Made by a program: the position numbers and the translations under genes. Under the pieces are notes generated by a model. The model searched no databases. It worked only from the letters and a program-made list of their open reading frames with translations, and was not told the origin of the DNA. A DNA stretch of 64,000 nt from Mobula hypostoma (Eukaryota). The first letter of the stretch is position 1; each line of letters begins with the position of its first letter. Positions 2,906 to 63,245 of the stretch are shown here, piece by piece. The stretch is taken from NCBI RefSeq assembly GCF_963921235.1, contig NC_086097.1:108068001-108132000 (forward strand), in the 5' to 3' direction.

Positions 2906-3050
2906 AAAATACTCCCTGAATTACATTTTCGTATATTACAATTTGACAGATGCATGTAAGTGCAATTTTTAAAAAGAATCCTCATTTGATTGCTTGAGAA
3001 AGGAAAGAGTAATGATTGGGGAAAAAAAGAGTTTGGAAGCTTGATACTGT

Positions 3051-3758
3051 TGTAGTGCCCCCCCCCACCCGGCCAGCCTCAGGGTCACTTGGCTCGCTGT
3101 CGTCGAGGGAAACAGCCCTCGGCCCCACCAAACTGGGTAATTCGTTTGTGTGGATGCTGTGTGATGTACCCCACCCCACCCAAATAACAGACAATACACC
3201 AGATACGATTAAATGATTTACAGTTTATAGATATTACTGGAACTATATAATTAATAGAGAATAAAATATAAAAGGAAAATAAAAGGCACCACACTTATCA
3301 AAGTTCAATCTTTTCGTGCACAAACAGTTGGAGCTCAGGACCCTTCTTCTTCAGCCTGCGACCCCTCGGACCACCTCGACCGGCCGCCTGGGACCAACAA
3401 CAGTGGTCAACCAGGTGCTCCACACAAGTCCGTCTTTGTCTCCTCTCCTCACTGAACGCCCTGCTTGGGGTCTGACCCCGTTAGCGGACATCACAGCACC
3501 TGGTCCATCCTCTGTCGCTCTCTCCTGCCTTTACCCCCAAAACCCTGCGCATAGAATATCTTCAGATACACCAAAAACATAACAACTATCCCAATTGGTT
3601 CGTAATATATTCTTATCCCACTCTAACCCAAAACAAGCTGCTAGCGCAAGAACTTTCTCAGTGTTTAACATAACAAAGAAGCATTCCCAAGTATAGCATA
3701 ACAAAGAAGCCATTTTAATTAGCCTACGCAGTAACATAAGAGACAAAACCCCCTTACA
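3051..3758 (-). repeat. 3' LTR of the Gypsy element
   Basis: TG...CA termini. Aligns end to end with 6582-7287 and sits next to the polypurine tract. Confidence 0.95.
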
Positions 3759-3770
3759 CTCTCCCCCGCC
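3759..3770 (-). promoter_or_regulatory. Polypurine tract (GGCGGGGGAGAG)
   Basis: Purine-rich run immediately 5' of the 3' LTR on the minus strand. Confidence 0.85.
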
Positions 3771-4247
3771 AAACAAAGTCATATCCTCATGACTTCTAAA
3801 TAACTCGCCAACCAGTCCTGCAGACACACAACAAACACATACACAGATACACACAGTGACAGTGCTCCCCAAACAGTGGACCTTACGGACACTACATAGG
3901 CCAACCTATCTGGGAGCTTCTTAATCCTCCGAGACCTCCGTACCCCCCCCCGCCCCACCTAAACCCTAAAGGCTCAGACACTACTAGGGATACCTCGGGC
4001 CTGCCTGCCAACTGCTCTGTCACTCAGGCCACCATTCCAACTCGGAGCCCCCAGTCCTGTGTCCGGGGCCACGCTTCTTTTCCTTCCTGGTCCTACTGCA
4101 ACTCAGACTGCCCACAGCTAACCCTCCCCACTACACCTGACTCAGTGGGAGAAGGGCCAAAGGTATCTTCCTCAATCACAGGGAAGTTAGCAAAAGGCAC
4201 TACATGTCCAGCACATCATCCTTCGAATTCGTATCCTTCCTCATTCC

Positions 4248-5000
4248 CTCGCTCGGTAGCTGCTGTTTGAGTTTCTCCAAACTGAAACATTTAGCCGGGG
4301 CTACCCCTTCAGCTTCCTGCAGTCGAGACGTCAGCTTCTTCGGGGACTCCTTCAACTCTCGTCACAGCCTCAGTAGTTCTGACTCAGGGTTCTGGGCCAT
4401 CTCAATCTGGGACGCAGTTACCCCACCAGCTTCTTCCACCCTGACCTGACAAGCAGCAGTTAAAGAATGTTCAGCCTCCGGTTGTTTCTTCCTGAGGACG
4501 TTTTCCAGGTCAACTTTCAGTTTTTCCACTTCATTTAAACTCGCGATAGTCATCTTCAGGTTCCTTTCAAGCGTCCGCCTCCCTTTTCTGAGATCTGTCC
4601 TCCATTTCTTCACCTCCTCGGGAGTGTAGTCAAACTCCCCTCCCTGGGCTCTCGGTTTTCTGTTGGCCTTAGTCAGAACACTTCCTTGATCTTCCCCAAC
4701 TTGTAAATCTTCCAATCTTTTCTGGATCGACGTCTTGAGTTTCTGCTGATCCCTTCGAAGGTGGGTCATTGTTTCTTCTCACTGGATTAATTCATCAGTA
4801 CTTGACCACAGTGTCGGCTCAGAATTCCATTGCTCCTTCTCCACAGCAACGAGTGTGAATTCCAAGTCTGCAATGGTCGTCCCACAAGTGCGGCACTCAG
4901 TCTCCGGCCGGCATTTCTGAGCACTCAGTTCAGCGGTGCAAATCCCCTCTCTTCCCTGTGTCTCATTCAGATTGACGACCTGGGTTTCCATCCCCAGGTC
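4248..5000 (-). pseudogene. Captured, intronless, internally deleted sarcomeric myosin heavy-chain rod (S2/LMM) fragment, MYH16-like
   Basis: Translates to DLGMETQVVNLNE...AELSAQKCRPETEC...IADLEFTLVAVEKE...QKRLEDLQVGEDQGSVLTKAN...NLKMTIASLNEVEKLKVDLENVLRKK...RVEEAGGVTASQIEM...ELLRL*RELKES...KKLTSRLQEAE...AKCFSLEKLKQQL. This is collinear with recalled class II myosin motifs (DLELTLAKVEKEK, LDDLQAEEDKVNTLTK, RLEEAGGATSAQIEM, KLAQRLQEAEE, AKCSSLEKTKQRL). Confidence 0.85.
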
Positions 5001-5950
5001 CACCACCGTCTGTTCCAACACCAGGAAGTTCAACTGGTATGTCGGGTCAATTTTCTCACATTGCACCAAACTCCTCCGGCCAAAAACTCCTCCACATTTG
5101 ACACTTTGCTTCTGTCGCCCGGGCTGAGCCACTCGCCTCGCTTCATAGTCCCCCCAGGCGAATCCAAGCTCCAGGCGGTCATCCACATACGCCAAAACTC
5201 CACACACCTTCATTTCCCCCATGGTCTTCCTCATGCCCCGCGGGAAGGATGCAGGGGCTCCGGATATGCCCTTGGGCATCTTTTTGGATCGGAAGAATCC
5301 TAGGGAACTATAGAGAACTGATAACGTCCGTCGTCAGCTCAACAGCTGCACTCCTCAGGATCTGGCAACATCCACTCCTCAGATCCAACACATTAAACCA
5401 CGTCGCATAATCCACACACACGCTGCCTTCATCTTCCACGCCGCCAGGGTCCAGTTGCTGCGACCTCTCTCTCACTGAGGTGTCTTCAGCGGTCAACTCC
5501 CCTCCCTCGTGGTAGTTCGGAGCATCTACTAAGAGGGTCTCACCCTCAGCTACTTTCCCCAAGCCATACCACCGCTGGGTCTCGTTTAAATTCGGTACCA
5601 GCTCAAGGCTACTACACACGTCCTCAGAAGCAACTCGACACACAGGGTGCCCAGACAATTCCCCCATGAACTCCAGGGTCATTAACATCGTCTTCTAGAT
5701 AACTACTGCCACTAGTACCCAAAGTCTCTGGTGCCCTTGCGGTTGTCAAGGGTAAATGCTTCAGACACTGGTTGTAAAACGAACTGTACAACAACTTGAC
5801 CTGCGCCCCGAAGTCAAGGATGGATTTCGCATCGCTTCCCTCTATCCGTAATGACACCCTGGGGCGTGGTCCCTCTAAACCTTCAGGAATAGGGTCTTTT
5901 CCTTTCGGAAGTTCATTGGTACATTGCTGGGAACGTGCTTCCCCAGAGAA
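5001..5950 (-). pseudogene. Deleted and degenerate Gypsy pol: aspartic protease, RT and RNase H remnants
   Basis: Protease: IPEGLEGP...[41 protein letters not shown] and LAYVDD. RNase H motif (SRSL..SEKNYP.HKLEFLALKWAVVD) seen as RRSLVQCEKIDPTYQLNFLVLEQTVVD. Confidence 0.85.
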
Positions 5951-6450
5951 CCCAAGCCGTTCCCCCACTGGGCCTCCACTAAGTTTCCCGACACCTCTCT
6001 GATCAGCTGAACAACTGGAGGAGGGGCTGATCCCCTGAAATGATCCCCCTGGCACTGCAAGCAATTTAGCCGCCCTCCTAGCCAGAGAAGACACACTGAA
6101 AACTTTCCCCCTTCTTTCAAATAACTGACAGCTGTCACTACGGTGTAAGTGAACCTGACAGCTCTAACACTGTCACCAGCCCGCCTACTTAAACTTTCAA
6201 CCAATCCCTGTCGCTCTCCCTCAACCGAGCACTGCCACTCATCTAACAACTGAGAGATCCGCTCCGCCCACGTCTCGCTAGTCTCCGCCCCTCTTGGGGT
6301 GGACACTATCCCAAACGCCAGGCGGAGCCTGCCGGAGCTGGAACATTTATTCACAGTCCCTACCTCCAAATCAGACCACTCTTTCCTCTCTCTCCCAACA
6401 GCATGGACAGCCCCAATTTCCACCTCCAACTCGTCAATGCTAGTCTGAAC
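5950..6450 (-). pseudogene. PNMA/Ma-like gag remnant
   Basis: [47 protein letters not shown] resembles the PNMA-type Gypsy capsid region. Confidence 0.8.
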
Positions 6451-6560
6451 TCGAACAAAGACCGCACCCACCACGCATACAGCAATAACCAGCAAATAAC
6501 CCACAGAGACACATATTACTGATTTAAACAGGGCACCCACACAGCATACCAGTAGATCCA

Positions 6561-6581
6561 ATCCCGGACAAAAGCCCACAA
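6561..6581 (-). promoter_or_regulatory. Primer-binding site, degenerate tRNA-Pro type
   Basis: The minus strand reads TTGTGGGCTTTTGTCCGGGAT directly after the 5' LTR, compared with canonical TGGGGGCTCGTCCGGGAT. Confidence 0.75.
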
Positions 6582-7287
6582 TGTAGTCCCCCACCCCCCA
6601 CCCGGCCAGCCTCAGGGTCGCTCGGCTCGCTGTTGTCTAGGGAAACAGCCCTCGGCCCCGCCAAACTGGGTAATTAGTTTGTGTCGATGCCGTGTGATGT
6701 ACCCCACCCCACCCAAATAACAGACAATACACCAGATACCATTAAATGATTTACAGTTTATAGATATTACTGGAACTATATAATTAATAGAGAATAAAAT
6801 GTAAAGGAAAATAAAAGGCGCCACACTTATCAAAGTTCAATCTCTTTGTGCACAAACAGTTGGAGCTCAGGACCCTTCTTCACCCTGCGACCCCTTGGAC
6901 CACCTCGACCGGCTGCCTGGGACCAACGACGGTGGTCAACCAGACGCTCCACACAAGTCCGTCTCCGTCTCCTCTCCTCGCTGACCCCCCTGCTCAGGGT
7001 CTGACCCTCTTAGCAGACATCACAGCACCTGGTCCATCCTCTGTCTCTCTGTCCCGCCTTCTCCCCCAAAACCCCGCGCATACAATATCTTCAGATACAC
7101 CAAAAACATAACAACTATCCCAATTGGTTCGTAACATATTCTTATCACGCTCTAACCCAAAACAAGCTGCTAGCGCAAGAACTTCCTCAGCGTTTAACAT
7201 AACAAAGAAGCATTCCCAAGTATAACATAACAAAGAAGCCATTTTAATTAGCTTGCGCAGTAACATAAAAGACGAAACCCCCTTACA
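6582..7287 (-). repeat. 5' LTR of the Gypsy element
   Basis: Direct repeat of 3051-3758, roughly 5-10% diverged by eye, with many CpG transitions. Confidence 0.95.
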
Positions 7288-7649
7288 CTGTGAATGTAGG
7301 GTCTTTAGTAATGAGACTTGAAAATTTATGCCAAAATTGTCTGCATTGTTCTTGGTGAGGAAGGGAGTCTTCAGCTGCAGGAAGGTTTTGTTGGACAGAA
7401 TGCAGTAGGGACAAATGGAATTCAATCAAGAATAGTAAGGGAATATGTTTGGGAAGAGTGTGATGAGGTAAGGTACTGAAAAGTAGAGAATTAAGGGGAC
7501 CCAGGACTAGATATACACACATCTGCTTCTGAGAGAAGCAGAATAGGTGTTTACGGCATACAGTATGGGGAAAGTTGGCTTGATTGATGTGACCTACTGC
7601 AGAAGAACAACTAAGTATTTTTCTGTTCGGTAAACACAAAAGAAAATCC

Positions 7650-12728: not shown

Positions 12729-12871
12729 ATTGAGGAAAGAAAATCCCAAGTTAAGATTCAAGATTCAAAGATTCAAAAAACTTTATTGTCATTCTAACCG
12801 TACATCGGCTCTGCAGGGCAGAATGAGACAGCGTTCCTCAGGAGCAGTGCAATCATAACATAACAAATGCA

Positions 12872-14740
12872 TTGAAACCAAATGCGCAAAGCATATTTAA
12901 CTATCGGGTTAGAGACCTGCTTAAGACGTTTCGAATCAAAAGGGAGAGAGGAGCCTAAAATAGAACCCAGTGTATAACCCTGAACCGATTGTAATTCCAA
13001 TGCTACCCATTTAGGAATAGATAGTATGTCCTGGTCAAGTAACCAAAATTTCATATGTCGAATATTAATAGCCCAATAATAGAATCTAAAGTTAGGTAAT
13101 GCTAAACCTCCATCTCTCTTAGCTTTCTGTAAATGTATTTTACCCAGTCTCGGATTCTTATTCTGCCAAATAAGTGAAGAAATTTTAGAGTCAACTTTAT
13201 CAAAAAAAGATTTAGGAACGAAAATTGGTAATGCCTGAAACACATATAAAAATTTTGGCAAAAAAAACATCTTAACCGCATTAATACGACCAATCAAAGT
13301 TAAATATAAAGGAAACCATTTAGATGAAAGTTGAGTAATATGGTCTATTAATGGTAAAAAGTTAGTCTTAAATAAATCTTTGTATTTACAAGTAATTTTA
13401 ATCCCAAGATATGAAAAGTAATTATTAATCAATTTAAATGGAAATTTATAATATAAGGGAAGATGTTTATTAATCGGAAAAAGTTCACTCTTACTAAGAT
13501 TTAATTTATAACCTGAGAAAAGACCAAATTGTGCTAATAACTCTAAAACAGCAGGAATAGATCTCTCAGGATTAGAGATATATAAAAGTAAATCATCAGC
13601 ATAGAGTGATAATTTATGGGACTTTAATCCCCGAGTTATCCCAGTAATATTTGAAGATTCTCGAATAGCAATTGCAAGAGGTTCTAATGCAATATCAAAT
13701 AATAGGGGACTAAGAGGACAGCCTTGTCGAGTACCACGAAAGAGAGGAAAAAAAGGTGAGTTTAAAGAGTTAGTGCGAACCGAGGCTACAGGGGAGTGAT
13801 ATAACAGTTTAATCCAGGATATAAATCTCAAGCTAAAATTAAACATTTCAAGCACCTTAAATAAATAAGGCCATTCTACTCTATCAAAAGCTTTCTCGGC
13901 ATCTAAAGAAATAACACACTCAGGAACATTTTGTGAGGGAGTATAAACGATATTTAACAATGTACGAATATTATAAAAAGAGTAACGACCTTTAATAAAA
14001 CCCGTTTGGTCCTCCGAAATAATAGAAGGAAGTACTTTTTCTAGTCTATTTGCTAATAACTTAGAAAAAACTTTAGAATCAACATTTAATAAAGATATTG
14101 GTCTATAAGATGCACATTGAGCAGGGTCTTTATCCTTCTTTAGTATTAGAGAAATTGATGCTCTATTAAAAGATTCAGGAAGTTTACCAAGTTTCAAAGA
14201 AGCCTCAAAAACCCTACCGAGCCAAGGAATCAATAAAGAAGCAAAACATTTATAAAATTCAACGGTAAACCCATCAGGGTCAGGAGCTTTCCCCAGATTC
14301 ATAGAAAAAATAACATTCTTAATCTCATCCATTGTAATGGAAGTATCTAATAAGGAAGACATATCCTGTGAAATCTGAGGGAAGTCTAACTTATCTAAAA
14401 AATCATTCATATATTTAGAATCTCGAGGAGACTCTGATTGATATAAAGAAGAATAAAAATCACAAAAGGTTTGATTAATCCCCACATGATCCAGTATCAA
14501 TCGATCATTTTGGTTATAAATCTGATTGATTTGAGATTTAACATAATTAGATTTCAATTGATTAGCCAGCAGCTTGCCAATTTTGTCACTGTGAACATAA
14601 AAGTCACTTCTTGTTTTCTTTAATTGGTTTACAATCGAGGACGAGAGTAGTAAACTGTGTTCCATTTGAAGTTCAGTTCTTTGTTTATATAACTCCTCAG
14701 AAGGAGCCATAACATATTTCTTATCAATTTCTTTAATCAA
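12872..14740 (-). CDS. L1 ORF2 reverse transcriptase region (inverted segment, uninterrupted frame)
   Basis: KAPDPDGF, SYRPISLLNVDSK, SLDAEKAFDRVEW, GTRQGCPLSPLLF, YADD and YLGI motifs. Homology ends at WFQ (12872). Confidence 0.9.
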
Positions 14741-14745
14741 TTTCT

Positions 14746-15705
14746 TTTCAATTCAGAAAATTTTTTGATCTTAATCAATTCGGGTTAGCGATTCCTATTT
14801 TAGGTAACATATTTTTTCCTCCCTCTTTTACGGATCGCGCTTTTCAAACTTGGAAGACTAAGGGTATTTTACGGTTTTTGGATTTATTTTTAGATGGTTC
14901 CCTTATGTCTTTTGAACAATTATCTAATAAATATAACTTATCAAGAATACATTTTTTTAGATATTTACAAGTTAGAAATTTCCTAAGTACTATACTTTCT
15001 TCCTTTCCAATGCTTCCTCCTACATATATTTTAGATTCGATAATTAACCTTAATCCATGTCAGAAAGGTGCATCGGCTATGATTTATAATATTATTATGA
15101 AACTTAGGAAAGCTCCATTTGATAAGATTAGGGTAGATTGGGAACAGGAATTGGGGCTTACCATTTCTGTGGATGATTGGGGGCAGATTTTACAATTAGT
15201 TAATACTTCCTCTATTTGTGCTAAACATTCCCTAATTCAATTTAAAGTGGTTCATAGAGCACATATGTCCAAAGATAAGTTAGCGCGTTTTTACTCGCAT
15301 ATTAATCCTTTCTGTGATAGATGTTCGGGGCAGATAGCCTCTTTAACTCATATGTTTTGGTCTTGCCCTGCTTTGGAAACTTTTTGGAGAGATATTTTCA
15401 ATATTATTTCTAAGGTATTAAATATAGATATCTCTCCTCACCCTATTACTGCTATCTTTGGACTACCTAAAATTTCTAGTAATCTTTCCCCTTCAGCCCG
15501 TAGAATGATTGCATTTCTTACTTTAATGGCGAAAAGATGTATTTTACAACATTGGAAAGAGCTTAATGCTCCAACTACCTTTTTTTGGTTTTCTCAGACG
15601 ATTTTATGTTTGAATTTGGAGAAAATTAGAAGTAACCTTTATGATTCTTCATTTAAATTTGAACAGATTTGGGGACCTTTTATTCGATATTTTCATTTAA
15701 TGTAA
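14746..15705 (+). CDS. L1 ORF2 C-terminal region with CCHC zinc knuckle
   Basis: The frame resumes at FQFRKFF, includes CDRCSGQIASLTHMFWSC, and stops at 15705. Confidence 0.9.
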   Translation, partial: FQFRKFFDLNQFGLAIPILGNIFFPPSFTDRAFQTWKTKGILRFLDLFLDGSLMSFEQLSNKYNLSRIHFFRYLQVRNFLSTILSSFPMLPPTYILDSIINLNPCQKGASAMIYNIIMKLRKAPFDKIRVDWEQELGLTISVDDWGQILQLVNTSSICAKHSLIQFKVVHRAHMSKDKLARFYSHINPFCDRCSGQIASLTHMFWSCPALETFWRDIFNIISKVLNIDISPHPITAIFGLPKISSNLSPSARRMIAFLTLMAKRCILQHWKELNAPTTFFWFSQTILCLNLEKIRSNLYDSSFKFEQIWGPFIRYFHLM

Positions 15706-45820: not shown

Positions 45821-48770
45821 CGTCCGACTGTCATGGTTGACCATGGGTACTGCGCCTCTGATAGTCACTGGTTTGTCGAGCAGCGTCAACTGTGGCTATT
45901 GAGGCTGATTCGGGAACGGCAGGCTCTGCCACAGTTGCTGCATGTGTAGGACGCCGTGGAATTGTTGTCCGCTGTGCTCTCCATTTAACTCTCCTCTCCT
46001 CAAACTGACTCAGGATCACTCTTTCGCCTTGCTCTGAAGAGTACCTTGCCATTTGTTGTGGTCATCTGCTGTATCCTCCCAGCACTCTGTGTTGATTTTT
46101 AAGGCTTTCATGTTGTGCTTACAGAGGCCCATGAAGTGAAGCTGGGGTCTACCAATATTCCTCCTGCCTGTTGCTAGTTCTCTGCAGAGGATGTCCTTTG
46201 GCAGTCTACCATCCTTCATACAACAGATGTGGCCTGGCCAGCGCAGTCTGCGTGGTCTTAAAAACGTGAACATTGTGGGAAGTCCAGTGCAGGAGAGAAC
46301 CTCAGAGTCTGGGACTTTGTCTCTCCAGGTGAAGGGTTCTGATGAGCTGCCATCGTACTGAACAGTAGCCCTCATGTCGTCACGGAATGACTTGATGATA
46401 CTTTGGAGTTTCAGGGGACAGCCAATCTTGAGGAGAATCTGAAACAGCCCATCCCTGCTGACAAGGTTGAATGCCTTGGTCAAGTTGATGAAAGCAACAT
46501 AGAGGGGTTTCTGTTGTTCCCTGCACTTCTCCTGGAGTTGACGGAGTGAGAAAATCACGTCAACAGTTGACTTCCTTGCGTGAAAACCACATTGGGACTC
46601 AGGGTAGACCCGTTCTTCCAGAGTTTGTAGACATGCCAGAGTTACACAAGCAAAGACTTTGCTGACAATACTCAGGAGGGAGATAGAAACAAGGAAAATA
46701 GGTGCAGGAGTAGGCCATTCGGCCCTTCGAGCCTGCACCGCCATTTAGTATGATCATGGCTGATCATCCAACTCAGAACTCTGTACCTGCTTTTTCTCCA
46801 TACGCCCTGATCCCTTTAGCCACAAGGGCCGTATCTAACTCCCTCTTAAATATAGCCAATGAACTGGCCTCAACTGTTTCCTGTGGCAGAGAATTCCATA
46901 GATTTACCACTCTCTATGTGAAGAAGTTTTTCCTCATCTCGGTCCCAAAAGGCTTCCCCTTTATCCTGAAACTGTGACCCCTCGTTCTGGACTTCCCCAA
47001 CATCAGGAACAATCTTCCTGCATCTAGCCTGTCCAATCCCTTTAGAATGTTGTACATTTCAATAAGATACCCCTGTAGTTGTTGCAGTCGCTCCTATCTC
47101 CCTTGTTCTTGTATAGAGTGATGATTTTGGAGTCGTGCATATCTTGTGGTACGGCTCCTTCCTTCCAGCACTGACGGAGGACCTCATGTAAAGGTTAGAG
47201 GAGTGGGCTCTTGCAGTGTTTGATCAGGTCTGGAGGAATCCCATCATTACCAGGAGCTTTCCCTGGGGCCAGACTGTCAGTTGCCTTGCTGAGGTCCTCA
47301 GTGGTTGGTTCGGAATCGAGTTCATCCATGACTGGTAGACAATCGATGGCATCAATGGCTGAGCTAACAACAACATTTTCCCTCGAGTAGAGCGTTCCAT
47401 CTGCTTGCTTTTATTGGTGATTATTTCACCACTGGATGTCTTCAGGGGTGCTGTCTTGCTCTGCAATGGGCTAAGGGCCTTCTTGATACCATCATACATC
47501 GATCTGATGTTGCCTGTCACAGCTGCTGTCTGAATGTCCTCACTGAGCTGGAGCCAGTACTCGTTTGTGCACTGCCTTGCTGTCTGTTGCAATTTGCTTC
47601 GAAGTGGCTGGAATGTTTGGTCGGATGGTGAACGCTTGTACTCTGTGGGAGCTGCACGCTTGGTTTTGATGGACTTTGCCTCAAACCACTCACAGTCCTA
47701 AGGTGGTAATTTAATAATTCCAAATGATTCTTGAAATATTCGAGAGGAAAGATTTCCCAAATCAGCTTTGGACCAGTCCATGCAGTATAGACATCACTGC
47801 TGCCGCAGCTCCCAGCCGAAATGCCTTATCCGTAGTTATGACGCAAAATACGATTTCTCAAAGTAAATGACCTTTCAACAAAGTGGTCATCACACAATAC
47901 CCAAACCGTGTAAGGGTTAACAAAACTTGTGTGCCACGTATGGACGGTTCCAAATGTCAGTCACACCTGTAATGCGAAATGCTGCTGGTTAACCCCAATC
48001 CTTCTGGGGTTCGTTCGGAGCTGCTGATTCTCCACTCTCACTCTCTTCTTCTCCGATGGCATAACTATCAACGGTGAATTCCCACCAAAACTAACTACGC
48101 AACAACTGTGGTTTCCCCTTATATACCAGTTGGAACATGCCATCACATGACATCACACCACCCCACTAACACAAGACAATTACATCATTCCAATGGCACA
48201 AGACAATTACATCATATTCACGAGATACTCACGGGACAGGTAACAAGCCAATGAGGAAGACTGACAGCACCTTATTGGCTGGGGGCTGTCCAGCTTGAGG
48301 CCGGCAGTAACTCTCCAGCGAAATGTGATGGTCTCTCCCACCATTAGAAGCAACCCCTGGCGCCATGCTCTACGCCAATCAAGCATTATGACTTATAACT
48401 GGTAACTGCTGCTTCCCACGTTTGTCTGACGCTATAAAGTGAAGCTGGAGTGGCCTCTCCAGGGCGCAAGCCAGGGCAGTGTTGATATGGAGATCCATCT
48501 GTTGCCCATGCAGTGGGACCCCCTTCTCCATGCAGATGACAGGTCCAAAGGAACGACAAAAGTCGATACAGTTTGGTGCCAGCAGCATCGCAGGAGTTGC
48601 CGTGCTGGTGCTGGGTACAGCAGTCAGGACTCCGACTCCAGGTTTTTCCTCGGGGTTTACTCCCAAAGGCTTTCCTGTAAGGGGTATAGCCGCAAGGCAG
48701 CGGAGGTTTGAAATTGGAGTTTTCCCTCTCCTAGATGAGCTACCATCCGTGGTTAGTGTGATCTGGGCCG
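45821..48770 (-). mobile_element. RTE (BovB-like clade) LINE, internally deleted, inserted in a Rex1 3' end
   Basis: VYPESQCGF..STVDVIFSLRQLQEKCREQQKPLYVAF..LTKAF and RRLRW.GH..MKDGRLPKDIL motifs. Rex1 flanks lie at 45310-45406 and 48932-49245. A CR1 tail is nested at 46685-47072. Confidence 0.85.
47695..48245. mobile_element. Possible LTR fragment nested in the RTE
   Basis: A CpG-retaining block unrelated to the RTE, ending in GTAACA. Left boundary unclear. Confidence 0.35.
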
Positions 48771-51666
48771 ACATTTACATGCCGGGCGGCACCTAATTAG
48801 CTTGTTTATTTCAGCTTTTTTCTTAAAGATGTGCTGGGTGTGTTCTGACTACCGCTGCACCGCTGCATTCTTCATGGCAATGTATCGGTCTGCGGCCTGG
48901 AGGTTGGGTACCACTGCCTTAAAACCAGTTTAAGGAGCGGTACCTCAGAAATGCAGTATCCTCCACCATCCAGGACATGACCTCTTCTCATTGTTACCAT
49001 CAGAAAGGAAGTACAGAAGCCTGAAAGCACATACTCAGTGATTCAGGAACAGCTTCTTCCTCTCTGCCATCTGAACACTACCTCACTACTTTTTTTAATT
49101 TCTGTTTTTGCACTACTTGTTTAATTTAACTAGTTAATATACATGCTGTAATTCAGTTTTTTCTCTATATTTATCATGTATTGTACTTCTGCCATGAATT
49201 TAACAAATTTCACGACAAATGCCAGTGATAATAAACCTGATTCTGGTTCTTCTGTCCCTGTTCTGTTTTATATCAATGCCATATGTATAGCATGTAGTTG
49301 GGTGCCTCTGGGATGCACTGTTACTGGTGGCCCTTCCATTGAGCATGAAGAATTGCTGACTTCATTTCCTGTATGAGCCCTTCTCTTGTGTGCTGTACAT
49401 TCTGATAGGTAAAATTCTGCCATTTTACTGTTCTCCGTCCCAACTAAATGAACTGCAGGTTAATGATGGTTGCATACCTATACAAGAAACAGATTAGATT
49501 TTCTCTTCATTCTCCATGTACTGTTTGCAGACATTTTTATTTCATCCTCATCTGTGTTGTTTCCTGAGCACTACACTAAAGGTTGTTATTTATTTCTTGA
49601 GCCTCTCGTCTATCGCAGTAGTTGTGATCGTGACTGCAGCACTCCCTCCTTTTGTATATGTCCATTTATTTGAGCTAATACTGAATGTTAACTTTGAATT
49701 CTGCAGTTGTCCTAACTCTCCTTGTTCTATTTGGTTCAGGCCCCCTCATCAGCAGTGTACCTAAGAGGGTCACACATGTCAACAGGATTTTGGCAGTCTT
49801 GCATTTCAAGTACTTGATGTGGTATAGAGAAACGAACCTGGTCAGGTGTCAGATCTCTTCGTGGGAGAGCATTTTGGAGATAGTGATCGCAATGCTACCT
49901 TCTTTACCATAGCATTGGAGAGGGATAGGAACAGACAAGTTAGGAAAGCATTTAAGTGGAGGAAGGGGAAAGATGAAGCTATCAGGCAGGAACTTCGAAG
50001 CATAAATTGGGAACAGATGTTCTCAGGGAAATATACAGCAGAAATGTGGCTAATGTTCAGGGATATTTGCATGGAGTCCTGCACAGGTACATTCCAATGA
50101 GTTGGAAAGGATGGTAGAGTACTGGAACCGTGGTGTACAAAGGCTGTTGTAAATCTAGTCAAGAAGAAAAGAAGAGCTTACGAAAAGTTAAAAAAAAACT
50201 AGGTTATGATAGGGATCTAGAAAATTATAAGGCTAGCAGGAAGGAGCTTAAGAATGAAATTAGGAGAGCCAGAAGGGGCCATGAGAAAGCCTTGGTGAGT
50301 AGGATTAAGGAAAATCCCAAGGCATTCTACAGGTATGTGAAGAACAAGAGGATAAGATATGACAGAATAGGACCAATCAAGTGTGACAGTGGAAAAGTGT
50401 CTATGGAACCAGAGGAGGTGGCAGAGGTACTTAGTGAATACTGAAGCAAAGTATTCACTACAGAAAAGGACTTTGGTGATTGTGGGGATGACTTACAGCG
50501 GACTGAAAAGCTTGAACATATAGTCATTAAAAAAGAGCATGTGCTGGAGCTTTTGGAAAGCATCAAGTTGGATAAGTCACTGGGACTGGTCGATATATAC
50601 CCCAAGCTACTGTAGGAAGCGAGGGAGGAGATTGCAATAATTTTTGCATCATCAATGGGAATGGGAGAGGTTGCAGAGGATTGGAGGGTTGCAGTTGTTG
50701 TTCCCTTATTCAAGAAAGGGAGTAGAGATAGCCCAGGAAATTATAGACCAGTGAGTCTTACGTCAATGGTTGGTAAGTTGATGGAGAAGATCTTGAGAGG
50801 CAGGATTTATAAAAATTTGGAGAGGCATAATATGATTAGGAATAGTCAGCATGGCTTTGTTAGAGGTAGGTCGTGCCTTACGAGCCTGATTGAATTTTTT
50901 GAGGATGTGATTAAACACATTGATGAAGGTAGAGCAGTAGATGTAGTGTATATGGACTTCAGCAAGGCATTTGATAAGATACGCCATGCAAGGCTTATTG
51001 AGAAAGTAAGGAGGCATGGGATCCAAGGGGACCTTGCTTTGTGGATCCAGAATTGGCTCACCCACAGGAGGCAAAGAGTGGTTGTAGACGGGTCATATTC
51101 TGCATGGAGGTTGGTGACCAGTGGTGTGCCTCAGGTATCTGTTCTGGGACCCCTTCTCTTCATGATTTTTATGAATGACCCGAGTGAGGAAGTGGAGGGA
51201 TGGGTTAGTAAATTTGCGGATGACACAAAGGTTGGAGGTGTTGTGGATAGTGTGGAGGACTGTTACAGCGGGATATCAATAGGATGCAAAACTGGGCTGA
51301 GAAGTGGCAGATGGAGTTCAACCCAGATAAGTGTGAGGTGGTTCATTTTGGTAGGTCAAATATGATGGCAGAATATAGTGTTAATGGTAAGACTCTTGGG
51401 AGTGTGGAGGATCAGAGGGATCATGGGGTCCGAGTTCATAGGGCACTCAAAGCTGCTGCATGGGATGACTGTGTGGTTAAGAAGGCATACGGTGTATTGG
51501 CCTTCATCAATCGTGGGATTGAATTTAAGAGCTGAGAGGTAATGTTACACCTATATAGGACCCTGGTCAGACCCCACTTGGAGTACTGTGCTCATTTCTG
51601 GTCCCCTCACTACAGGAAGGATGTGAAAACTATAGAAAGAGTTCAGAGGAGATTTACAAGGACGTT

Positions 51667-59705: not shown

Positions 59706-62700
59706 ATAGAACATAGAACATAGAATAGCACAGCACATTACATTACACGCCCTTCGGCCCACAATGTTGTGCTGACCCTCAAACACTGCCTCCCATATAA
59801 CCCTCCACCTTAAATTCCTCCATATACCTGTCTAGTAGTCTCTTAAATTTCACTAGTGTATCTGCCTCCACCACTGACTCAGGCAGTGCATACCACACAC
59901 CAACCACTTTCTGAGTAAAAAACCTTCCTCTAATATCCCCCTTGAACTTTCCACCCCTTACCTTAAAGCCATGTCCTCTTGTATTGAGCAGTGATGCCCT
60001 GGGAAAGAGGCGGTAGCTATCCACTCTAACTATTCCTCTTAATATTTTGTATACCTCTATCATGTCTCCTCTCATTTTCCTTCTCTCCAAAGAGTAAAGC
60101 CCTAGCTCCCTTAATCTCTGATCATAATGCATACTCTCTAAACCAGGCAGCATCTTGGTAAATCTCCTCTGTACCCTTTCCAATGCTTCCATATCCTTCC
60201 TATAGTGAGGTGACCAGAAATGGACACAGTACTCCAAGTGTGGCCTAACCAGAGTTTTATAGAGCTGCATCATTACATCGCGACTCTTAAACTCTATCCC
60301 TCAACTTATGAAAGCTAACACCCCATAAGCTTTCTTAACTACCCTATCTACCTGTGAGGCAACTTTGAGGGATCTGTGGACACGTACCCCCAGATCCCTC
60401 TGCTCCTCCACACTACCAAGTATCCTGCCATTTACTTTGTACTCTGCCTTGGAGTTTGTCCTTCCAAAGTGTACCACCTCACACTTCTCCGGGTTGAACT
60501 CCATCTGCCACTTCTCAGCCCACTTCTGCATCCTATCAATGTCTCTCTGCAATCTCCGACAATCCTCTACACTATCTACAACACCACCAACCTTTGTGTC
60601 GTCTGCAAACTTGACAAACCACCCTTCTACCCCCACATCCAGGTCATTAATAAAAATCACAAAAAGTAGAGGTCCCAAAACAGATCCTTGTGGAACACCA
60701 CTCGTCACAATCCTCCAATCTGAAAGTACTTCCTCCACCACCACCCTCTGCCTTCTGCAGGCAAGCCAATTCTGAATCCACCTGGCCAAACTTCCCTGGA
60801 TCCCATGCCTTCTGACTTTCTGAATAAGCTTACCGTGTGGAACCTTGTCAAATGCCTTACTAAAATCCATATAGATCACATCCACAGCACTACCCTCATC
60901 TATATGCCTGGTCACCTCCTCAAAGAACTCTATCAGGCTTGTTAGACACAATCTGCCCTTCAGAAACCCATGCTGACTGTCCCTGATCAGACCATGATTC
61001 TCTAAATGCCCATAGATCCTATCTCTAAGAATCTTTTCCAACAGCTTTCCCACCACAGACATAAAGCTCACTGGTCTATAATTACCCGGAATATCCCTAC
61101 TACCTTTTCTGAACAAGGGGACAACATTCGTCTCCCTCCAATCCTCCAGTACCATTCCCGTGGACAACGAGGACATAAAGGTCCTAGCCAGAGGCTCAGC
61201 AATCTCTTCCCTCGCCTCGTGGAGCAGCCTGGGGAATATTCCGTCAGGCCCCGGGGACTTATCCATCCTAATGTATTTTAACAACTCCAACACCTTCTCT
61301 CTCTTAATATCAACATGCTCCAGAACATCAACCTCACTCATATTGTCCTCACCATCATCAAGTTCCCTCTCATTGGTGAATACCGAAGAGAAGTATTCAT
61401 TGAGGACCTCGCTCACTTCCACAGCCTCCAGGCACATCTTCCCACCTTTATCTCTAATCGGTCCTACCTTCACTCCTGTCATCCTTTTTTTTTCTTCACA
61501 TAATTGAAGAATGCCTTGGGGTTTTCCTTTACCCTACTCGCCAAGGCCTTCTCATGCCCCCTTCTTGCTCTTCTCATCCCCTTCTTAAGCTCCTTTCTTG
61601 CTTCCCTATATTGCTCAATGGACCCTTCTGATCCTTGCTTTCTAAACCTCATGTATGCTGCCTTCTTCCACCTGACTAGATTTTCCACCTCACTTGTCAC
61701 CCATGGTTCCTTCACCCTACCATTCTTTATCTTCCTCACCGGGACAAATTTATCCCTAACGTCCTGCAAGAGATCTCTAAACATCTACCACATGTTCATA
61801 GTACACTTCCCTGCAAAAACATCATCCCAATTCACACCCACAAGTTCTAGCCTTATAGCCTCATAATTTGCCCTTCCCCAATTAAAAATTTTCCTGTCCT
61901 CTCTGATTCTATCCTTTTCCATGACAATGCTACAGGCTAGGGAGTAGTGGTCACTGTCCCCCAGATGCTCACCCACTGAGAGATCTGTGACCTGACCCGG
62001 TTCATTACCTTGTACTTGATCTAGTATGGCATTCCCCCTGGTCGGCCTGTCCACATACTGTGACAGGAATCTGTCCTGGACACACTTAATAAACTCTGCC
62101 CCATCGAAACCCTTGGAACTAATCAGGTGCCAATCAATATTAGGGAAGTTAAAGTCACCCATGATAACAGCCCTGTTATTTTTGCACCTTTCCAAAATCT
62201 GCCTCCCAATTTGCTCCTCTGTATCTCTGCTGCTACCAGGGGGCCTATAGAATACTTCCAATAGAGTAACTGCTCCCTTCCTGTTCCTGACTTCCACCCA
62301 TACTGACTCAAAAAAGGATCCTGCTACATTACCCACCCTTTCTGTAGCTGTAATAGTATCCCTGACCAGTAATGCCACCCCTGCTCCCCTTTTTCCACCC
62401 TCTCTATCCCTTTTAAAGCACTGAAATCCAGGAATATTGAGAATCCATTCCTGCCCTGGTGCCAACCAAGTCTCTGAAATGGCCACCACATCATAATTGC
62501 ATGTATGTATCCAAGCCCTCAGTTCATCATCATTGTTCCTGATGCTTCTTGCATTGAGGTACACACACATCAGCCCTTCTACCTTATAGTCATAGTCATA
62601 GTCATACTTTATTGATCCCGGGGGAAATTGTTTTTTGTTACAATTGCACCATAAATAACAAATAGTAATAAAACCATAAATAGTTAAATAGTAATATGTA

Positions 62701-63245
62701 AATTATGCCAGTAAATTATGAAATAAGTCCAGGACCAGCCTATTGGCTCAGTGTGTCTGACCCTCCAAGGGAGGAGTTGTAAAGTTTGATGGCCACAGGC
62801 CACCTTACTAGCTTTACACCGTTTATTCTGCTTCTCTTTCCTCAAAGCCTCTCTATATGTTTGATCTGGCTTTACTCCATGCACTTCTTTCACTGCTCTG
62901 TCACTCCGGGTCCCATCCCCCTTACAAATTAGTTTAAACCCTCCCAAACCATGCTAGCAAATCTACCTGCAAGGATATTGCTCCCCCTCGAGTTCAGGTG
63001 CAACCCATCCAATCTGTACAGGTCCCACCTTCGCTAGAATGATCCAAAAATCTAAAACCCTGCCCCCTGCACCAACTCCTCAGCCATACATTCAACTGCC
63101 ATCTCCTCCAATTCTTACCATCTCACTGTCACGTAGCACTGGCAGCAATCCTGAGAACGCCACCCTTGAGGTCCTGTTCTTCAGACTTCTGCCTAGTTCC
63201 CAAAACTCACACTTCAGGACCTCATCCATCTTCCTGCCTATGTCC
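59706..63245 (-). mobile_element. Near-complete CR1 LINE: ORF1 esterase end, ORF2 endonuclease and RT, 3' UTR; few disablements
   Basis: ORFs 61785-62570 (APE), 61479-61784, 60301-61482 (RT) and 59779-60273, with an (ttctatg)n tail. Confidence 0.95.
62587..62800 (-). mobile_element. Rex1-type 3' end nested in CR1
   Basis: Reverse complement of 53570-53781. Apparent TSD ACCTTA at 62581-62586 and 62802-62807. Confidence 0.8.

Follow-up and report, generated by a model that had tools for sequence, protein, structure and literature searches.

Long terminal repeat (LTR) retrotransposons can take up host messenger RNA (mRNA), and the closest described systems are the LTR-mediated retrocopies, or 'pseudo-LTR retrotransposons', of Tan et al. 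2016 (Genome Res 26:1663; PMC5131818). There, template switches let a partial, intron-free mRNA replace part of the open reading frames (ORFs) of an element, and the resulting chimera can retropose again; cases are reported from fly, mosquito, zebrafish (5 of 7 retrocopies), chicken (4 of 10), mouse and human (PMC5131818). The same paper names the maize element Bs1 as an LTR element with captured pieces of host genes, and also the capture of FAM8A1 by HERV-K in human (PMC5131818). Here we describe a related case from a ray, Mobula hypostoma. The stretch of DNA analysed, hereafter the window, is 64,000 nucleotides long (contig NC_086097.1, positions 108,068,001 to 108,132,000) and contains an old copy, no longer active, of a family of non-autonomous Ty3/Gypsy LTR retrotransposons in which a segment of a sarcomeric myosin heavy chain (MYH) rod stands in the place of the integrase.

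Like the retrocopies of Tan et al., the ray chimera is flanked by LTRs, has part of its internal ORF replaced by intron-free host mRNA and has been retroposed again (PMC5131818). Those retrocopies are young and of single or low copy number, with microsimilarity demonstrated at their joints, whereas the ray chimera is old, numbers on the order of a thousand copies, has split into subfamilies and is found in several genera of rays, and the host exons at its capture joints were not recovered (PMC5131818). HERV-K with FAM8A1 is likewise a vertebrate LTR element with host mRNA but, unlike the ray family, it is an unamplified single locus of retrovirus type (PMC5131818). The literature searches brought up no paper on this myosin-carrying Gypsy family, only the general mechanism (PMC5131818). 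Since LTR-mediated capture of host mRNA has thus already been published for animals, vertebrates included, we rate the novelty of the locus lower than did an earlier note that had been made from the window sequence (PMC5131818). The ray chimera is a new and unusually prolific case of the published mechanism, not a new mechanism. It offers a clear vertebrate case of an LTR retrotransposon that acquired spliced host mRNA, and one in which such a chimera became a large, long-lived repeat family and not only a one-off locus.

Bs1 is a low-copy plant element that carries pieces of several genes. The ray family resembles it in being a non-autonomous LTR element with host coding fragments between the LTRs, and Bs1 has been transcribed and has moved as a unit; unlike Bs1, the ray family carries a piece of one animal gene, fused in frame to pol, and has reached a very high copy number. 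In acutely transforming retroviruses, v-onc sequences derived from spliced host mRNA replace replication genes, often in frame, and the virus depends on a helper. These viruses are infectious and selected for a cellular phenotype, unlike the ray element, which is a germ-line element whose insert bears no sign of activity.

Myosin rod and Gypsy backbone

The element spans positions 3051-7287 of the window on the minus strand (4,237 bp; Table 1). Its LTRs are 93.2% identical (48 mismatches in 704 aligned positions), with termini TGT...ACA (TG..CA). A single frame runs from 5345 to 4203 and passes from ribonuclease H (RNase H) directly into myosin at 4998/4997. The myosin part was identified by several independent comparisons. 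The 138-aa ORF at 4362-4778(-), compared by phmmer with PDB sequences, gave 12 matches with E<=1, 11 of them to myosin heavy chains; the best of these (E 6.3e-7) is collinear with residues 989-1091 (matched residues 987-1091), and a second PDB myosin alignment falls on RLEEAGGATSAQIEM, at about residues 1107-1175. A 251-aa rod piece of a lungfish myosin-7-like protein (P0018) matches window positions 4473-4997 with an E value of 1.3e-18 for the 3.5-Gb genome. In lungfish numbering, the window copy is a mosaic of residues ~925-1097, 1105-1114, 1160-1190 and 1397-1430, with gaps that include one of 9 and one of 42 codons. Two private stops interrupt its myosin part, TGA at 4779-4781 and another at about 4362, and neither is fixed in the family.

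The Pfam family Myosin_tail_1 (PF01576), to which the earlier note had looked for confirmation, did not provide it, as no ORF of the element or its family reached the cut-off. The best element-derived score (E 0.067, from a piece of the related copy L063) lies at the correct profile position, 78-173, and a Narcine 'myosin-6-like' fragment (P0019), which we read as derived from the host gene, scored 28.9 bits against a cut-off of 38.1. We attribute the miss to the shortness of the pieces and the divergence of the source gene, not to absent homology. The myosin identity thus rests on direct homology and not on membership of the family model.

A genome search with P0019 returned one short, open, 87%-identical match on contig C68 amid hundreds of element copies. 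Two host exons were located there within the 18 kb examined (C68:14612358-14612503 and 14615500-14615590), with canonical AG/GT borders and a codon split across a 2,996-nt intron. The host MYH gene at 14.61 Mb of C68 is read from these two exons, which amount to 237 nt when spliced. Of the 13 elements compared, 7 have the complete 237 nt contiguously, with 90.7-95.8% identity; in another five the coverage is 214-234 nt (86.4-92.9% identity), and in the window copy it is 187 nt (80.7%). The host intron is absent from the elements, and in the older copies the myosin homology runs unbroken across both outer borders of the exon pair. Among the MYH paralogs of this genome, the stretch equivalent to lungfish residues 901-1097 is interrupted near residues 986 and 1045. 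The contiguous exons, the missing intron and the unbroken homology at the outer borders together show that the insert comes from the spliced mRNA of the C68 sarcomeric MYH gene or of its ancestor. A tblastn search with family ORFs was uninformative for the first 30 MYH loci, which are other paralogs.

These comparisons agree with the claim of the earlier note that the insert is an intron-free piece of sarcomeric myosin rod, and show it to be sense-oriented, to align collinearly and position by position, as opposed to a generic coiled coil, and to cross an exon-exon junction. The label MYH16, which the note had also proposed, has as its sole basis in our data the NCBI automatic names of some element ORFs, others being named skeletal, cardiac or striated. 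As a separate observation, at least eight tandem sarcomeric MYH genes lie on C68 at 15.30-15.90 Mb, about 0.7 Mb from the divergent source gene (for example at positions 15308879, 15386708, 15461996, 15535164, 15616306, 15709750, 15830560 and 15895518), and their exons are 77-87% identical to the lungfish myosin-7-like sequence.

The Gypsy backbone was mapped by tblastn with the full-length fish Gypsy gag-pol proteins P0044, P0049 and P0037. The gag ORF matches Pfam PNMA (E 8.5e-6, 25.7 bits; cut-off 25), and window 6354-6046 aligns to P0044 residues 144-278 (E 8e-12); a search of this ORF against longer proteins gave no match. The protease remnant (6028-5690) aligns to P0044 367-481 with 43% identity (E 1.4e-17) and reads ILDFGAQV where the D-T/S-G active-site motif is expected. 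The reverse transcriptase (RT) remnant (5433-5040) aligns to P0044 818-939 (E 7e-17) and falls under the cut-off of Pfam RVT_1 (E 0.018). Its frame is split by a 10-nt insertion at 5311-5320 that is absent from 26 of 29 other sampled copies, in which the frame is continuous. The RNase H remnant aligns to P0044 1089-1117 (E 0.053), P0049 792-821 (E 0.003) and P0037 668-696 (E 0.008). The motif FLVLEQTVVD was also considered as the start of the myosin, and was rejected as it aligns to RNase H. As for the tail, the stretches of the related copy L062 that match it align to P0044 1707-1739 (E 0.016) and P0037 1427-1474 (E 0.002), the latter at the C-terminus of P0037, and window 4244-3754 is 69% identical to the tail of another relative, L075.

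Thus, PNMA-type gag, protease, RT, RNase H remnant and C-terminal tail are collinear with the fish Gypsy gag-pol proteins. The latter carry Integrase_H2C2 and rve domains, whereas the window element has the myosin rod at this place, together with large deletions in RT and RNase H. It has no integrase, stops and frame breaks mark what remains of its RT and RNase H, and it is not autonomous. The RNase H of L062 is 61-73% identical to that of 37 long proteins, of which 26 combine RVT_1, RT_RNaseH, Integrase_H2C2 and rve and 3 carry PNMA; several are named 'Gypsy retrotransposon integrase-like protein 1' or 'transposon opus'.

The replacement of the integrase can be followed in related copies. Twelve loci found with P0019 have the same backbone, at ~66-90% DNA identity to the window copy; the older subfamilies among them have kept a larger share of both RNase H and myosin. 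L062 and L063 retain the RNase H domain (Pfam RT_RNaseH, E 1.5e-11) and carry myosin residues ~907-1130 in one piece before a jump to ~1405-1433; over 254 aa, L062 and the lungfish myosin share 44% identity (E 6e-59). L069 has ~1031-1190 followed directly by ~1397-1433, the sequence on either side of the jump reading LEE(A/S). The right-hand joint into the pol tail is common to all subfamilies compared. The whole pattern accords with a single capture and later, nested deletions. Those end points of the deletions that could be placed differ from the two mapped host exon borders with one exception, a 9-codon gap that begins directly after the exon-exon joint and yet is missing from the older copies. 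Relative to L062, the 4998/4997 joint of the window copy is a 280-nt deletion at a GTGGA(T/C)/GTGAAC similarity. In the window's subfamily the original left junction has been lost, the present joint being a later internal deletion.

A search with RNase H DNA of the L062 type gave 1,901 first-look candidates in its own genome; this and the other copy counts below are numbers of first-look candidates, that is, floors or rough figures and no census. Five of the matching copies, L062 included, are 85-100% identical, and a large group is 81-83% identical. L075, from the latter group, is 83.5% identical to L062 in RNase H, 79% in the pol tail and 70% in the LTR. Between the shared RNase H and tail, it has ~1,550 bp that encode an integrase (48-66% identical to P0037 849-1274) and have no counterpart in L062, which has ~740 bp of myosin there. 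The start of the LTR and the polypurine tract (PPT) are conserved among the window copy, L062 and L075. At the left capture joint, pol runs for ~11 codons beyond NIDADALSR before myosin sets in at about residue 907; at the right one, myosin ends after KTKQQLQ and the pol tail resumes with (E)EK.NT.S.DD..VWY. RNase H, myosin and pol tail share one frame in L063, in which both joints are in frame, and L062 has frameshifts of its own.

The structure outlined in the earlier note is hence upheld in its main lines: the LTRs of 706 and 708 bp and the 4-bp ACAG duplication delimit an LTR element around the myosin segment, the alignments to three fish Gypsy pols confirm the RNase H call, the frame enters ~248 codons of rod (~250 had been estimated) right after it, the Gypsy pol-type tail follows, and the integrase-bearing relative L075 agrees with myosin in place of integrase. 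The same joint recurs in 30 of 30 genomic copies, and short contigs from two other studies (X1 record 6 and X9 record 21) span 4998/4997 with more than 31 letters on each side; these contigs are of unspecified type and have no bearing on expression.

Table 1. Features of the myosin-carrying Gypsy element in the window. PBS, primer binding site; TSD, target site duplication.
Feature	Positions	Strand	Basis
TSD ACAG, upstream copy	7288..7291	-	flank ...tcacag precedes LTR TGTAAGG
5' LTR, 706 bp, TGTAAGG...ACTACA	6582..7287	-	direct-repeat search; exact ends read
PBS-like stretch TGGGCTTTTGTCCGGGAT	6561..6579	-	TGG start; few bases past 5' LTR; read from sequence
gag ORF, 253 aa, PNMA-type capsid domain	5875..6636	-	Pfam and tblastn
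Protease remnant	5690..6028	-	tblastn with fish Gypsy gag-pol P0044
RT remnant with internal deletions; YVDD at 5178-5189	5040..5433	-	tblastn with P0044
RNase H remnant FGRRSLVQCEKIDPTYQLNFLVLEQTVVD, 29 residues	4998..5084	-	alignment to three Gypsy pols
Myosin-rod-derived segment, ~248 codons, mosaic, in frame with RT/RNase H	4257..4997	-	homology searches
pol C-terminal tail remnant, downstream of integrase, including RRSRRIKKLPDRLAY at 3896-3940	3896..4256	-	relatives L062 and L075
Polypurine tract GGCGGGGGAGAG	3759..3770	-	abuts 3' LTR; conserved in window, L062 and L075
3' LTR, 708 bp	3051..3758	-	direct-repeat search; exact ends read
TSD ACAG, downstream copy	3047..3050	-	...ACTACA then acagtatc

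Amplification and proposed origin

A DNA search with window 4200-5100 gave 874 candidates. All 40 that were scored matched, and the 39 non-self matches are nearly full length at 94-96% identity. Three further genome searches gave 837, 1,155 and 2,255 candidates, the last figure including true MYH exons. Thirty copies were fetched from many contigs; all share the internal structure and the 3' LTR, and for 19 of them the match is a single alignment of 3.4 kb or more. Compared in pairs over 1.1 kb, the 30 copies are 91.4-97.5% identical (median 93.5%). As this median is in line with the LTR-LTR divergence of 6.8%, it fits one old burst. With 40 of 40 scored and 30 of 30 fetched copies alike, the chimera has undergone secondary retroposition, and the suggestion that the capture took place at the window locus did not hold: the window has one decayed copy of an amplified family that is also predicted in other ray genera. 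Only 2 of the 30 copies are without a stop and without a frameshifting deletion over 361 codons (insertions uncounted). No single stop position is common to more than 6 of the 30, so that the frame was probably open, over at least 361 codons, in the copy that founded the burst. Separately, the loci L064 and L065 (C198:463965-467333 and C116:4525368-4528685) differ by only ~2-3% in the myosin part, with a synonymous divergence (dS) of 0.027, and are far nearer to each other than to the remaining copies in the comparison, which points to either a segmental duplication or duplicated assembly contigs.

We give a probability of roughly 80% to the explanation as a whole, namely a non-autonomous Gypsy family formed by mRNA capture, copied in trans, amplified in a burst and carrying the rod as a passenger. 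In its ancestor, the polymerase, while reverse-transcribing in a virus-like particle, would have switched to a co-packaged spliced mRNA of a divergent sarcomeric MYH gene, whose present-day copy would be that on C68 at 14.61 Mb, and then back. The product would have been LTR-gag-protease-RT-RNase H-(myosin rod ~907 to ~1433)-pol C-tail-LTR, having lost ~1.55 kb of integrase, with the insert in frame at both joints as seen in L063. Deprived of integrase, the chimera would have kept only its cis signals (LTR ends, PBS-like site and PPT) and would have been copied by proteins supplied in trans by related autonomous Gypsy elements. Such mobilisation in trans is suggested by the absence of integrase, by the number of copies, and by a PPT and an LTR start that the window element has in common with L075. 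The chimera would then have risen to the order of a thousand copies, while internal deletions, one or more of which lay at a short sequence similarity, split it into subfamilies. In that of the window, most of RT and RNase H and some of the myosin would have been lost before a single burst and subsequent decay.

Several observations weigh against this explanation. The host exons at the capture joints (~907 and ~1433) were not recovered in a search swamped by element copies, and for this reason template switching is only inferred. The LTR of L075 is only 70% identical to that of L062 and has no blastn match to the window LTR past the first bases; the autonomous partner of the window's subfamily was not pinned down among the relatives. 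Finally, the reading frame appears to have been retained. The clean indels in the myosin part measure 60, 72, 84, 27 and 21 nt, in 5 of 7 elements the lengths at the 1130/1405 joint differ by multiples of three, and both capture joints are in frame in L063. Such retention fits a purely passive passenger less well. It is suggestive only, as the tally, made against L063, is reliable inside the myosin part only and is rough, with a partly messy alignment and events that are not independent.

Two other origins were weighed. A processed myosin pseudogene made by a LINE might have been inserted into a Gypsy element, with later deletions taking the integrase and the ends of the pseudogene. ORFs with LINE-type RT and endonuclease are common in this genome, several of them in the window, and intron-free pieces of myosin tail do exist outside LTR elements, for example at C18:48745314-48746731. 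The insert, however, comprises an internal part of the mRNA only, is sense-oriented and in frame at both ends, and has no A-run at its right joint, where myosin codons pass straight into pol-tail codons. Moreover, ~1.55 kb was lost and no more than ~1.6 kb gained, the pattern of template-switch chimeras as described by Tan et al. (PMC5131818). We regard such a nested insertion as improbable. A chance resemblance between coiled coils, or an assembly artefact, has in its favour the Myosin_tail_1 scores below cut-off and weak matches to unrelated coiled-coil families, and is hardly credible in view of the collinear, position-specific alignment to myosin. It is refuted by the 81-96% nucleotide identity of element copies to spliced host MYH exons, by the same joint in 30 of 30 independent copies and by the bridging contigs. 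Capture of spliced mRNA by the Gypsy element remains the preferred origin.

Tests for selection on the rod, and its possible use

Pooled over 30 copies, the ratio of nonsynonymous to synonymous polymorphism (pN/pS) amounts to 0.62 for the myosin part, against 0.70 for the dead RT/RNase H remnant. Between subfamilies, the ratio of nonsynonymous to synonymous substitution rates (dN/dS) is 0.27-1.0 and does not separate from a neutral baseline measured in the same way. Values between the elements and the host gene (0.13-0.86) are uninformative, since the host branch is under purifying selection. On these figures, the captured rod most likely travels as a passenger and has no function of its own, and the retained frame would reflect at most selection for an open frame in master copies, not for the function of the rod.

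Alternatively, the captured coiled coil might have been kept as useful, a translated Gag-Pol-myosin protein aiding multimerisation, entry into the particles of a partner or interference, and thereby explaining the success of the family. This would accord with the single frame of L063 and with the window copy, in which the RNase H remnant, the myosin and the start of the pol tail lie in one frame save for the two point stops that are not fixed. It would also accord with the probable open founder, with the predicted proteins of other copies, which are open over 227-432 aa, and with the predominance of multiples of three among the indels. On the other hand, the myosin part shows no lower pN/pS than the dead remnant and a dN/dS inseparable from the baseline, different subfamilies discarded different parts of the rod, an open frame may be favoured for other reasons such as RNA stability, and the indel tally has the weaknesses given above. 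We thus consider a useful rod unlikely, although, given the retained frame, a functional fusion protein keeps a small probability. Slightly more doubtful still is a specific form of the proposal, in which the founder would have made a Gag-protease-RT-RNase H-coiled-coil fusion whose dimerising rod replaced the role of integrase in Pol multimerisation or particle entry. If true, the defective element would have parasitised its autonomous Gypsy partner with unusual efficiency across myliobatiform rays, and would be the first vertebrate retrotransposon to have co-opted a domain of a host structural protein for its own propagation.

Other rays, database names and neighbouring repeats

A profile-free search with the family ORF P0002 against 1.84 billion representative proteins gave 29 matches with E<=1e-3, of which 20 were looked up. 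Together with four matches of another search and one cluster member, these include element-type ORFs from Mobula birostris (4), Mobula hypostoma (8), Hypanus sabinus (3) and Hemitrygon akajei (2). An RT or RNase H remnant is fused to myosin in six predicted proteins (P0001, P0003, P0008, P0009, P0010 and, from Hypanus, P0016), which come from Mobula birostris, M. hypostoma and Hypanus sabinus. The derived deletion ...TAAFQ|V.VEEA.G... of the window's lineage recurs in the stingray ORFs. Both chimera and deletion are thus older than the split between mobulids and dasyatids, or else have moved between them. If its distribution were mapped, the combination of a shared chimera and a shared derived deletion could serve as a rare-genomic-change marker for ray phylogeny.

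Several database entries are short ORFs of the element family: P0004, P0008, P0010, P0011, P0014 and P0033 from Mobula hypostoma and P0007 from Hypanus sabinus. Their RefSeq names are 'myosin-16-like', 'putative uncharacterized protein MYH16' and 'myosin heavy chain, cardiac/skeletal/striated muscle-like', and P0008 and P0010 have RT remnants at the N-terminus. Element ORFs named in this way inflate myosin gene counts in ray genomes. In P0012 of Hypanus sabinus, annotated as 'succinate dehydrogenase assembly factor 3, mitochondrial isoform X1' (SDHAF3), the C-terminal two thirds are element, consisting of myosin-derived VGVEEAVGVTASQIEM followed by pol tail; this represents either exonisation of an element copy or an annotation error.

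The remaining observations concern other repeats and pseudogenes. Intron-free myosin stretches occur at C18:48745314-48746731 (L031), C50:30689110-30689772, C184:304888-305403, C157:172388-172903 and C21:138691427-138692201. They match long runs of Myosin_tail_1 (for example 514-993) and contain stops, and they look like processed pseudogenes unrelated to the Gypsy chimera. The window itself is rich in repeats, and a search for tRNA genes with ARAGORN found none in it. Further RT frames (RVT_1, E 7e-39 to 3e-10) lie at 60301-62702 (-), 12794-14752 (-), 14737-15705 (+), 46016-46744 (-) and 50616-51365 (+). They look LINE-type, with an Exo_endo_phos endonuclease beside the RT at 61785-62702 and a zf-RVT domain at 14737-15705.

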